Origin: Eledone cirrhosa
Taxonomy: Eukaryota
Direction: 5' to 3'
NCBI GenBank assembly: GCA_964016885.1
Contig: OZ024740.1
Location: forward strand, 239,506,001 to 239,570,000
DNA: 64,000 nucleotides
The position numbers and the translations under genes are program-made. Below are positions 6,101 to 63,054 of the stretch, in pieces (within the stretch, counting starts at the first letter, position 1; each line of letters begins with the position of its first letter). The notes beneath the pieces were generated by a model that saw only the letters and a list, made by a program, of their open reading frames with translations, ran no database searches and was not told the DNA's origin.

Positions 6101-6310
6101 CTAATCAGATCAGAGCAAACAGCACGGACACTCTATCTCAAAATTATTTTTGAAAAGCATTTAGAAATGCGCAACCGGTAAAAACTTAAAAACTTAAAAC
6201 CACAACTGAATACTAACCCATACAATCACTAAAACTCTTTTATTCCTAATTAAACCATTTTTCAACTGTGAACAATTTGTCAGCATTTTCTATTCCGTTT
6301 ACCAATATAT
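3197..6310 (-). mobile_element. 5'-truncated Penelope-like element with inverted pseudo-LTR
   Basis: 3197-3530 is the reverse complement of 5976-6310 and these repeats flank an RT/GIY-YIG ORF. Both ends lie at or near TA-rich microsatellite. An internal tandem duplication lies at 3735-3900/3950-4120. Confidence 0.92.
4474..5975 (-). CDS. Penelope-type reverse transcriptase + GIY-YIG endonuclease, uninterrupted but 5'-truncated
   Basis: Motifs FDVVNLYSNIP, QKSGTAMG, RYLDD, LPFLD, YYKPTD, Cys-rich linker CDRPNCGIC, NLIYVLTCSGCREQYIGQT (GIY-YIG), C-terminal E..FI.KY.P.LN. Confidence 0.93.
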
Positions 6311-6774
6311 ATATATATATGTGTGTGTGTGTGTGTGTGTGTGTGTGTGTGTGTGTGTGTGTGTGTGTGTGTGTGTGTGTGTGTGTGTGTGTGTGTGTGT
6401 GCGTGCGCGCGCGCGCGCGTGTGTGTGAGAGAGAGAGAATGAATAAATAAATAACCAACGTTCAATATATTATTTAATTAATTTAGACACGTTTCTTTCA
6501 AATATAATGACTGGAAATTTACAAAGTCTTTTGCCAATCTTTCGAATATTAATAATAATATTCGATTCGTTTGCAATTATGCAAGCAAGCCTCAATTTTA
6601 TAGCCATGTCAGTAGAATGAACACTTCATTCTTTCTCTTGTGTTGGCATGCGAACAGAACTGTAGATACTAATGTTTCTTGGTATCACCCTTCTTCAGTA
6701 CAACTCACTGTTCACCTGCCAATAAACATTTTCATTTAGTCCAGAATTAGCCGTCGAAACGGCTTGAGCTCAGC

Positions 6775-6880
6775 CGTCGGGGTCCTACTCGTTCCTATTA
6801 CCCACTCTACTACCCTAAGTATTGAGTACTTTGGTGCGTTATGGTCATCTGGTTCCTTACCACATTTCCTTCGTTATATA
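6775..6880 (+). repeat. Interspersed repeat terminus abutting (TA)n
   Basis: Reverse-complement copies at 59855-59970 and 62220-62287, each ending in (TA)n. Confidence 0.7.
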
Positions 6881-7155
6881 TATATATATATATATATAGT
6901 AATAATAATAAATATGAATACTAAAATCCGAAGGGTGAAAGCAGTGATTCTTTGCTTAAACTTTAATCTTTTATTTTATTACCTATATATATATATATAT
7001 ATATATATATATATATATATATATGAAAACAGGGAGAAAGAGACGATTATTATGAAGAAAAATATTTTCTTTTCCTTTTTATTTATTTCCCTCTTTTGTT
7101 ATATATATAATTGTTTCGCCGGCAGATAGCTCGAGACACGATCAATGTATGGATC

Positions 7156-7241
7156 TGTCTGAAGAACCTGCAGATCTAGAATCAGAAAGATCCATACAAT
7201 GATCGTGTCTCGAGCTATCTGCCGGCGAAACAATTGTAACA
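7156..7241 (+). ncRNA. Minimal type I hammerhead ribozyme with extended stem II
   Basis: TGT-CTGAAGA-aCCtGCAGAT...ATCTGCcGGc-GAAAC-AATT-GTA-ACA: core, stems I and II, palindromic loop III. Confidence 0.75.
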
Positions 7242-7895
7242 CACAATAAACTGAGTCCAGATGCATCACTGATTTTTCGTTTTATATTATATCACACTCT
7301 GCTCTGTAAGAACATAGAGTGCTCAACTGGCATACCGCCTATGGAAGCATCATAACTACCATTAAACACACATATATATCAGTATTAAGCCATTGGTAAC
7401 ATCAACAACAACAACAACACCAGTGATGACCCCACCACGGCGGGGGCGGCAACAGGCAAAAAGCCACGCTTCCATGAAAAATAAACTAACCACAATAGTA
7501 GTCTGTTGAAACAAAGAAGTGAAAATGGGATAGAAACATAGATGGGTATTAAAAAATACGTTTCCAGTTCATACAATCCTCCTCTATCATTGTAAGGCAC
7601 AAGGCCAGCAATGATCATAGCATTCAGTCCCAACTACAGTGGCAACAATACTATCAAAAGGGCTGTTAGGCCATGGAAGAGAGTTACGGGAAGCGAAAGT
7701 AGGGACAGGAACAAATAGAAGAAACGAGAACACACATAGAGAACACAATAATAAAGGATCGGGACAAAAATACATAAAAAACAACAGTAGGTATATAAAC
7801 AGAGGAATAGGGAACAAAGGACAAGAAACATGTACACATAAAAACTCCAGGTGGTCCTCCACGGACGAGTTTGCAAAAGTCTTCAACTAACACAA

Positions 7896-59655: not shown

Positions 59656-60590
59656 CATTGACATACGTACTTATATATATATGTGTGTGCGTATGTATAT
59701 ATATACATACATGGACATATATATATATGTACATCTGTATACATATATGTATGTATGTATACATACATACTTACATTTACGTACCAGCCGTACTAAGAAT
59801 GAGTAATGAAATTTCGTTTCATTCTTTTCCATTTATATATATATATATATATATAACGAAGGAAATGTGGTAAGGAACCAGGTGGACCATAACGCACCAA
59901 AGTACTCAATACTTGAGGTAGTAGAGTGGGTAATAGGAACCAGTAAGGGGTCGGGGTCTTACTGGTTCCTATATATATATATATATATATATATATATAT
60001 ATATATATATATATATATATATATATATATATATATATATACATATACATATATATATATATAAATGGAAAAGAATGAAACGAAATTTCATTTATCACTC
60101 TTAGTACGGCTGGTACTTAAATGTATGTATGTATGTATGTATGTATGTATGTATGTATGTATGTATACGTACACACACACACATATATATATATATATAT
60201 ATATATATATATATATATATATATATATATATATATATATATATATATATATATATATATATATATATATATATATACATATATGTATATACATATATGT
60301 ATATATAAATGGAATAGAATGAAACGAAATTTCATTTCTCATTCTTAGTCCGGCACTTACTTAAATGTAAGTATGTATGTATGTATACTTACATACATAT
60401 ATGTATACAGACGTACAGTAGTACGTATATATATACACACATGCACACATATATATATGTACGTATGGGTTTACCGAACAATTATTATAATGCTCGGTTT
60501 GTTTTGTTTGTAAACAAACAAACAGCCCGAATTACGCCGTACAGTGTTCAGGCAACCATCTTCACCTTTTTGTTCAACACTGACACACGA

Positions 60591-60633
60591 ACGATGTACT
60601 AGCTTCAAGCTAATTAGCTATCGTCAGCATCGT
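60591..60633 (-). ncRNA. Minimal type I hammerhead (GAAG variant)
   Basis: Reverse complement: ACGATG-CTGACGA-tAGCT aatt AGCTt-GAAG-CTAG-TA-CATCGT; perfect 6-bp stem I. Confidence 0.72.
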
Positions 60634-61639
60634 ATAACTATATATATATATATATATATATATATATATATATATATATATATATATATATATATATATA
60701 TATATATATATATACAAATGAATATATGCTAGGGATAAACACTGATACGAGTATACATGTGTTCGCATTGCAAATGACCAAGTTAGCTAGATTGAAAAAT
60801 ACTAATTAAAATAATACGGTTTGCCTGTCTCAATTTAAAATAATAAATCAATAAAAACAAATCTATATTGGCAAAAGCCGTGATACCTGGAAAAATTTAA
60901 GTTTTAAATTTCAAATTTGTTTCGCAACAATTAAGTGAAAGTTCCTATTTCTGTGCTCTTCTGCAGGTATCCAGAAATTGGTAAGTTTCACTTCAAAATA
61001 CTAATGAAGACTGGGAGAGATGTGTTTTTTAACGCACATGTGTCACAGCGTCTAACGCGTCCTATACTCGTGCCGCTAAAAGTAGCAGCCGGTTTTATGG
61101 GACTAAAAAATGAGCTGAATGGATGGAGCCGAGCATATTATATATAGAGTTATAAACTCAAATAGTCTTTTACAATTAAATAGCTCAAAGAAAGGAATAT
61201 TTCTGAGCCGTATAATACAAATGAATATATGATAGGGATAAACGCTGATACGAGTATACATGTGTTCGTATTGCAAATGACTAAGTTAGCTAAATTGTAA
61301 AGTATATATATATATATATATATATATATATATATATATATATATATATATATATATATATATATATATATATATATATATATATATATTTATATATATA
61401 TATATATATATATATATATATATATATATATATATAAATATGTATACATGCATATATGTATACAGACGTACAGTAGTATGTATATATATATATACATACA
61501 TGCACACATATATATATGTACGTATGGATTTACCGAACATTTATTATAATGCTCGGTGTGTTTGTAAACAAACATCCCGAATTAAGCCATACAGTGTTTA
61601 GCAACCATCGTTGCTCATTTGTTCAACACTGACAAAGGA

Positions 61640-61681
61640 ACGATGTATTAATTTCAAGCTTATTAGCTATCGTCAGCCCGT
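61640..61681 (-). ncRNA. Minimal type I hammerhead, paralogue of 60591
   Basis: Reverse complement: ACGgG-CTGACGA-tAGCT aata AGCTt-GAAA-TTAA-TA-CATCGT. Confidence 0.65.
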
Positions 61682-63054
61682 ATACCTTCCTGCCAGATGA
61701 TTGAACGTCTGAAAGTATATATATCCTTATGCATATTAACGGCTGAGCAGCCTCATTTACATATAGAGAGAGTTAATCGGCCGGGCGCACCGAAAACAAT
61801 AAACGGAAAATATGAAACGAAATTTCATTTCTCACTCTTAGTACGGTTGTTACTTAAATATAAGTTTGTATACGTACATACATATATGTATACATCGTTC
61901 CTTTGTCAGTGTTGAACAAAAGAACAACGATGGTTGCTAGACACTACGGCTTAATTTGGGATGTTTGTTTACATACACACCGAGCATTATAATAAATGTT
62001 CGGTAAATCCATACGTACATATATATATATGCATATATATATATATATATACATACTACTGTACGTCTGTGTATATATATGTATGCACGTATACATACTT
62101 TATTTAAGTAACAGCCGTACTAAGAGTGAGAAATGAAATTTCGTTTCATTTTCTCCGTTTATATATATATATATATATATATATATATATATATATATAT
62201 ATATATATATATATATATAAAACAAAGGAATTGTGGTAAGGATCCAAATGGACTATAACGCACCAGAGTACTCAATACTTAGGGTATTATATACATACAT
62301 ATATATATATATATATATATATATATATATATATATATATATATATATATATATATATATATATATATATATATATATATATATATATATACATATATAT
62401 ATATCCCTATCATATATTCATATACATATTATTAGGAAGAAAAATATATTTTTATCCTTTTTTGTTTCTCTCTCTCTTTTTTCTGGGTTAGAAAATGATT
62501 AAAACGAAATGTTTTACTTTGTGTGAAGTGTTAAGGTATTACTTGATTTATTTATTATTTAACAGTGGCATTTATTTATCTATTTATCTATTTAATTATT
62601 GTCTATTACCGGTTTCAGCATTTTTATGCATTATCAAATGATAGTGAAATGTATCAGTGTGGTGTCGCACATGTTAAACAGAAGGTGCAGAAAGAATAAT
62701 TTTATTTACAAACAAGGTTTATAAAGTGAAAAGAAAAAAGAAAAAGGAAAAAAAACGTACATATTGTAGAACGTAAAAAGTCAATGTGGAAGAAAAAATA
62801 ATGTTATTTACAAGCAAAGTCATTGAAGTTAAGCAGATCAAAATGTGTTAATATAGCAAGAGTGCTTAGTTGATCCATGATTCCGTGATGGAGGCAAATG
62901 GTGGACTCAGGTTCGATATGATTTCCCTTTTTAGAGAGTTAATATTCAGGGGGAAGCAATTCTTTCTGGGTGATATTTAATTTATTTAAGAAAAAGGATT
63001 AGGTAGGGTGTGAGGGAGGTAACTCTTGTAAATGTTTGATTGTTTGTTGCAGTT

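Follow-up and report, generated by a model that had tools for sequence, protein, structure and literature searches.

The window analysed here, a 64,000-nt stretch of the Eledone cirrhosa genome (GCA_964016885.1, OZ024740.1:239,506,001-239,570,000, forward strand), contains four hammerhead ribozyme motifs spread over three families of Penelope-like elements (PLEs), designated F1, F2 and F3. All four carry U3-A8 in place of the canonical C3-G8 pair of the hammerhead core, and U3-A8 is the state of a whole lineage of PLEs in this genome. The reading that we favour, and consider probable from sequence evidence, is that of a weak, dimer-dependent PLE hammerhead of a known kind, in which U3-A8 is fixed and which would be further weakened in F1 by a C at core position 13. 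The initial annotation had proposed a lineage-wide variant that standard CUGANGA searches miss; the U3-A8 core has already been published for PLE hammerheads of Schistosoma mansoni (PMC4209133) and for natural hammerheads (PMC3088659). In this respect a known variant is extended to another host lineage, and the fixed C13 of F1 would be a modest variant beyond the published descriptions found.

The positions of the motifs and their shared U3-A8 core with the ACCGGU palindrome, as first annotated, are confirmed by direct reading and by a pattern fitted to the four motifs, which matches four times in the window and not once in any of 300 block shuffles. A relaxed scan of the window recovers three of the four, together with three canonical C3-G8 motifs that belong to other repeat families; the fourth motif, in which a U-U opposition opens stem II, falls outside that scan and was read directly from the sequence. 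The F1 motif is a minimal type I hammerhead with U3-A8, C13 and the ACCGGU palindrome, located in the sense 3' pseudo-long terminal repeat (pLTR) of copy 1 (3324..3360, minus strand; core positions 3-17 at 3327-3357), with a stem II of 5 bp, a stem I of 3 bp and a predicted cut after 3327. An identical motif lies at 6147..6183 (plus strand; core 6150-6180), in the inverted 5' segment of the same copy and antisense to its open reading frame (ORF). Both had been noticed before, with 6147-6183 as the main motif and 3325-3360 as its mirror; these roles must be exchanged, the sense motif being the one at 3324-3360. The F2 motif (27592..27627, plus strand; core 27595-27624), in the 3' pLTR of copy 2, combines U3-A8 with A13 and a 3-bp stem I, and its cut is predicted after 27624. 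The F3 motif (62603..62641, minus strand; core 62607-62637), in the 3' pLTR of copy 3, likewise has U3-A8 and A13, with a predicted cut after 62607, a stem I of 2 bp and a stem II opened by a U10.1-U11.1 mismatch.

The predominance of U3-A8 extends to the whole 3.0-Gb assembly, in which exact patterns ending in the ACCGGU palindrome were counted with the reversed pattern as control. In combination with A13, U3-A8 yields 20,006 matches (control 14), as opposed to 181 for C3-A8 (control 16), 105 for U3-G8 (control 8) and 15 for C3-G8 (control 6). A further 12,467 matches (control 28) carry U3-A8 with a base other than A at position 13, this base being C in 99 of the 100 listed. A search that requires CUGANGA and GAAA overlooks over 32,000 motifs across the assembly. 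Families were also sampled through the homology of their pLTRs, and not by core pattern. These searches returned 501, 2,757 and 1,698 candidates for F1, F2 and F3, of which the best 40 of each were scored and 30 of each fetched; because they are the closest copies, the fetched sets lean towards the query. Among such best matches, U3 and A8 are present in all 30 copies of F1, of F2 and of F3, and in 29 of 30 copies of a fourth family, F4. The core U3-U4-G5-A6-N7-A8-A9 is the majority state in the four families, with a Watson-Crick 3-8 pair, and ACCGGU followed by A17 (the palindromic stem III region, U16.1-H17) is conserved across the families tallied. The proposal of a lineage-wide variant is upheld by these position tallies, in which U3 and A8 are the family state.

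Two additional core changes seen in the window had been put down to possible decay, and they have different standings. Position 9 in F2 (n=30) is A in 28 copies, G in one and C in one, the last being the window copy itself; A9C is thus decay, since it is private to that copy. On the other hand, A13C is found in 30/30 F1 copies and in 36/36 motifs of 20 long F1 loci (19 chosen for a 784-codon frame, plus one tandem array). The G12-A13-A14-A15.1 box is hence absent from F1, every other core position being intact, whereas it is present in F2, F3 and F4, which have A13 in 30/30 copies each.

The 3-8 change can be called covariant, as originally proposed, in comparison with canonical hammerheads of other families, but no C3-G8 sister family with the same palindrome was found in this genome. 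The best candidate, the family of locus L133, proved to be F4, with U3-A8 in all but one of its 30 copies, and the exact C3-G8 matches are only the 15 already mentioned, against six in the control. Four of these 15 are, by context, true double changes inside U3-A8 families, where about one would be expected from the single-change counts (hand calculation), and these four copies may be relics or may have arisen by chance. The same loci frequently contain canonical C3-G8 families, but with other palindromes. A wobble intermediate was sought in F6, which turned out not to be a G8 family: among 100 of its 406 matches listed, 88 are U3-A8, 11 are U3-G8 and one is C3-A8. G8 is thus 11 times commoner than C3 in these matches (L316-L327; 11 vs 1), an excess that might stem from a subfamily with U3-G8, from local slippage or from A-to-G editing of the template. 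Separately, a recurring short repeat (L299, L300) combines a mismatched C3-A8 core and ACCGGU with no clear stem II; it accounts for about one fifth of the 100 C3-A8 matches listed and is perhaps a degenerate offshoot.

Both stems covary between families. Across seven motif families, 26 of 28 stem II pairs and 18 of 21 stem I pairs are kept, as opposed to means of 14.3 and 11.6, respectively, when the arms are swapped between families, and several pair types occur per stem position. The 10.1-11.1 position is G-C in F1, F2, F6 and F7, U-U in F3 and F4, and A-U in F5. Pairs were counted by script, automatic alignment having set the cores out of register, and the covariation is descriptive: the families are related, so that the permutation value cannot be read as a probability in the strict sense, and F5 and F7 comprise only two and five copies, picked from mutant-core searches. 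Cofolding of two copies pairs the 6-nt palindromes in F1, F2 and F3, which a dimer fold would require.

Among the families sampled F1 is the youngest, with near-identical and many intact copies. Within the 40 scored copies, 21 besides the query are identical to it over 321 nt, and 20 of the 150 endonuclease matches listed sit in a 784-codon open frame. Because F2, F3 and F4 carry A13, C13 would be the derived state. A fixed C13 was not found in the literature searched, with structure reviews, a paper on dimeric PLE hammerheads and the supplementary figures of Perreault et al. lying outside that search. An apparent C13 could also have arisen from a register shift, through a C inserted after G12; this was rejected, as it would lose A15.1-U16.1 and as L296, an F1-type copy with A at that position, aligns free of gaps. 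Contigs of four sequencing runs cover the F1 motif and list no other letter at position 13, with very low depth in two of them and their origin unspecified.

The ends of insertions provide a view of what cutting does in these elements. Using a query that runs from the predicted cut site into ORF1, and thus ranks copies regardless of their upstream content, 29 of the 30 unit-length F1 copies fetched were found to extend at least 24 nt upstream through the site and none to start exactly there; the start of one copy, L244, is ambiguous within 4 nt of it. All 30 F2 copies extend at least 13 nt upstream of the site and, again, none starts exactly at it. At the other end, 61 of 81 F1 motif ends cluster 124 and 164 nt beyond the predicted cut. 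Since copies run through the site, the copied RNA must have passed the motif uncut or rejoined, in F1 and F2 alike, and since no copy starts exactly at the site, the copied RNA does not owe its ends to cutting. Insertion 5' ends were discarded as a proxy for cutting, given that they do not separate the C13 family from the A13 family.

The weak, dimer-dependent hammerhead that we favour would operate as follows. The motifs are minimal type I hammerhead sequences situated in the terminal repeats of one PLE lineage, and two of them, in one tandem transcript or in two transcripts, would pair their palindromes to form stem III. The U3-A8 pair would retain the active-site pair, with the 2'-OH of nucleotide 8 and with G12, and the RNA would likely be cut weakly, as ACCGGU-paired dimers, with the probable aid of the element's protein. 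Cutting would then be slow and secondary, serving to trim tandem transcripts or to separate them, and the template would be defined without it. Both U3-A8 and U10.1-U11.1 occur in natural hammerheads and are tolerated there (PMC3088659). Changes at A13 are reported to be strongly deleterious in older mutagenesis. The derived A13C of F1 likely lowers cutting further, and the spread of F1 with C13, as the youngest family and with many intact copies, suggests that efficient cutting is likely dispensable for that spread.

Several observations weigh against this reading. Stem I is only 2-3 bp long and A-U-rich, and monomers fold no better than shuffled sequences (z of -0.9 for F1 and 0.0 for F3). 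Read-through copies cannot separate RNA that was never cut from circles that were cut and religated, and the motif is unchanged between C13 subfamilies (raw P ~0.006, marginal once corrected for the search pattern), which sits poorly with a crippled C13. Moreover, when a type III hammerhead was screened, activity was rescued by the G3-C8 swap alone, all other single and double changes in the 3/8 region, U3-A8 included, giving low activity (PMC9901934); U3-A8 is hence not always neutral.

Some of the same evidence could be taken further, to the effect that the whole U3-A8 lineage is catalytically dead and that its motif persists as a palindromic site for RNA dimerisation or for protein binding. 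Such a scenario would account for the fact that none of the 60 unit-length copies begins exactly at the cut site, for the low activity of U3-A8 in the above screen and for the tolerance of C13 in the youngest family, and it finds a parallel in Naiad PLEs, which proliferate without canonical hammerheads (PMC8557442). In F1, furthermore, the sequence upstream of the motif forms a predicted 6-bp hairpin (6138-6153, plus strand, with a mirror near 3354-3369, minus strand) that competes with the hammerhead fold by tying up core positions 3-6, whether one copy is folded or two; weaker versions of this hairpin appear in the F2 and F3 folds. What makes a dead lineage unlikely is that G5, A6, A9, G12, A14, A15.1-U16.1 and H17 have been kept as the majority state in four families while the stems turned over, just as catalysis demands. 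In addition, U3-A8 is reported to be active in vitro (PMC3088659).

The opposite possibility is that C13 is tolerated or compensated and that F1 is a working ribozyme, U3-A8, the dimer context or a bound protein making A13 unnecessary. The case for it comes from the alignment of 48 copies, 33 of which fall in three C13 subfamilies. Between these subfamilies the flanks differ at 19 of 142 columns, whereas none of the 36 motif columns differs by substitution, nor does any of the 19 nt upstream of the core. C13 has persisted through at least three subfamilies whose endonuclease identity goes down to 84% (on a 45-aa stretch), with all other core positions intact. This hints at continued constraint on the C13 motif, but the signal is marginal after correction, P rising to ~0.06 (hand calculation) without the 16 motif columns fixed by the search pattern, and sequencing run X1, with ~10 variable sites outside the F1 motif and none inside, shows no significant lack of variants. 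A13 also belongs to the consensus core used to reject candidates in a survey of natural hammerheads (PMC3088659), and every G12-A15.1 box in the alignment text of Cervera and De la Pena is GAAA (PMC4209133). A working F1 is accordingly improbable in our view, and we are equally doubtful of its most specific form, in which three bases of the core (U3, A8 and C13) are changed and A13, although regarded as invariant, would be dispensable to a hammerhead acting as a dimer on the element's protein. Lastly, a reading of the motifs as canonical hammerheads in decay, or as chance resemblances, can be dismissed as most improbable in spite of the A9C decay in copy 2 and of the lack of a hammerhead among the 150 of 215 Rfam window matches listed (an uninformative result, as the canonical motifs of the window are equally unlisted), since the family tallies refute it: more than 32,000 exact matches stand against 42 in the controls, C3-G8 with ACCGGU is near control level and the stems covary.

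The remaining value of the system lies in the F1/F2 pair: both families are abundant and related, core position 13 distinguishes them, and it is the younger one that has the non-consensus base. The pair bears on the question of whether the mobility of a PLE depends on hammerhead cutting (PMC4209133, PMC8557442, PMC11167929). If the C13 motif is dead in a spreading family, this would speak for cutting being dispensable in vivo; if it is live, the consensus of the hammerhead core would widen, and A13 and C13 sister families in one genome would provide a natural test of the purpose of PLE hammerheads.

The ORFs adjoining the motifs encode a PLE reverse transcriptase (RT) with a C-terminal GIY-YIG endonuclease. 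In Pfam searches, GIY-YIG is above cut-off in copies 1 and 3 and RVT_1 just below it in copy 1 (E 1.5e-6); copy 2 has no Pfam match for RT or GIY-YIG, yet it is 56-58% identical to copy 1. In F1-F4 the motif of the family is the first one downstream of the endonuclease, in sense orientation to the ORF, and unit-length copies have a motif at both ends; for F5-F7 the loci covered give no link to an ORF. The pLTR position and the RT coding capacity originally ascribed to the three window copies stand, but none of the copies is intact. Copy 1 is truncated at its 5' end, leaving an open RT-endonuclease frame of 506 aa (4474..5994, minus strand) that comprises RT, a CX4CxxC linker and GIY-YIG. Its 3' pLTR (3163..3560, minus strand; boundaries approximate) reaches a (TA)n target ~165 nt beyond the predicted cut site, and an inverted pLTR segment, 97% identical to it and ending in (TA)n, occupies the truncation point (5976..6312, plus strand; end approximate). 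The mirrored motif of copy 1 follows from this arrangement, the insertion being 5'-truncated with an inverted terminal segment. Copy 2 (22222..27770, plus strand) is a near-full-length but decayed two-ORF element in (TA)n, with the ATG of ORF1 at 22268 and its RT-endonuclease frames broken between 23402 and ~25715. Copy 3 retains the frameshifted 3' part of an RT-endonuclease ORF (63055..63998, minus strand), split into frames and running off the window.

In intact elements of F1 and F2, an ORF1 of ~400-440 aa overlaps the 784-codon RT-endonuclease frame that follows it at -1. Both frames are seen in seven of the 20 long F1 loci (L216, L218, L221, L222, L224, L233 and L234), most others being truncated within ORF1, and a 400-aa ORF1 is seen in four of 30 F2 loci (L278, L286, L290 and L295). 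A U UUU UUA heptamer lies at the overlap, in ORF1 phase in intact members of both families, which are ~58% identical in protein, and out of phase in the decayed copy 2 (23423..23429, plus strand, in the overlap region 23402-23432). No stable hairpin was found 3' of it in F1 (-3.8 kcal/mol), and the heptamer is a candidate site of programmed -1 frameshifting without an obvious downstream hairpin. A possible exchange of modules is seen in that the F1 pLTR is nearer to that of F2 (75% over 127 nt) than to that of F3, whereas the F1 protein is nearer to F3 (71%) than to F2 (58%).

Other repeats are found in the window. The 3' non-coding region of copy 2 (26200-27400) has a ~400-nt unit three times in tandem, with (CA)n tracts in between, and a near-perfect 100-nt inverted repeat centred on (TA)n is found at 18216-18315. 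Two of the canonical C3-G8 motifs (47698-47729, minus strand, and 47959-47990, plus strand), with a 7-bp stem I and a UGCA palindrome, belong to a non-coding repeat in a fold-back (inverted) insertion that ends in (TA)n (47573-48100). The third (53702-53756, minus strand) is a minimal hammerhead motif in which stem II is long and the palindrome is UAUAUA; its family recurs in other loci. By eye, and from translations only, an RT-bearing fragment resembling a long interspersed nuclear element (LINE; 27909-29115), a transposase-like fragment (36327-37952) and a longer two-ORF LINE-like element (41250-46547) can also be made out.

To judge by its title, a paper by Lunse, Weinberg and Breaker (RNA Biol) reportedly deals with dimeric small hammerhead variants of PLEs. 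As far as the host elements are concerned, the combination of RT, CX2-5CxxC linker and C-terminal GIY-YIG, with DKG and GxKF motifs, (TA)n targets and partial-tandem and inverted insertions, is shared with endonuclease-positive (EN+) PLEs of the Neptune/Nematis type (Craig et al. 2021, PMC8557442), a type that the elements appear to fit by motifs, read directly in the 784-codon frame, rather than by an RT tree. Canonical EN+ PLEs have a single ORF, whereas a separate ORF1 overlaps the RT frame in intact members of F1 and F2; an organization of ORF1 plus frameshift is allowed for some PLE types in the legend to Fig. 1 of the same paper (PMC8557442). The behaviour of insertion ends recalls the PAc hammerhead of Anolis Poseidon, a protein-assisted hammerhead that insertion in vitro does not require and whose cut site shows no RNA ends (Frangieh et al. 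2024, PMC11167929). In both cases the hammerhead lies upstream of the start of reverse transcription, no ends are found at the cut site and two 3' end positions occur, with a tail in PAc and at 124 and 164 nt in F1 as noted above. PAc, on the other hand, is a canonical C3-G8 hammerhead overlapped by a single ORF in the Penelope/Poseidon clade, as opposed to the Cys-rich linker and two ORFs found here (PMC11167929).

With the natural core variants of Perreault et al. (2011, PMC3088659) the motifs have in common the U3-A8 covariation and the U10.1-U11.1 opening of stem II; the section of that work on core variants names A6C, A6a, a U13a insertion and U15.1-A16.1, and not the A13C substitution. 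A close parallel is provided by the minimal PLE hammerheads of S. mansoni, for which Cervera and De la Pena (2014, PMC4209133) describe 'U3-A8 instead of C3-G8' in ~1,300 matches, as well as a dependence on dimers and a low activity. Two S. mansoni rows of the published alignment have U3-A8, one of them marked as PLE-associated, whereas an S. japonicum relative has C3-G8. Like the S. mansoni motifs, which are found with Cercyon, those of E. cirrhosa are minimal type I hammerheads in terminal repeats, with U3-A8, a palindromic stem III, a predicted action as dimers and mostly truncated or inverted copies (PMC4209133). Unlike them, they have shorter stems (2-4 bp for stem I and 4-5 bp for stem II in F1-F4), no extra nucleotide after A9 in F1 and F2, a CCGG instead of a CG palindrome and, in F1, a C13 that falls outside the Cervera alignment, and their core variant is the state of an entire lineage of several families, in which exact matches exceed 32,000, as opposed to ~1,300 (PMC4209133).

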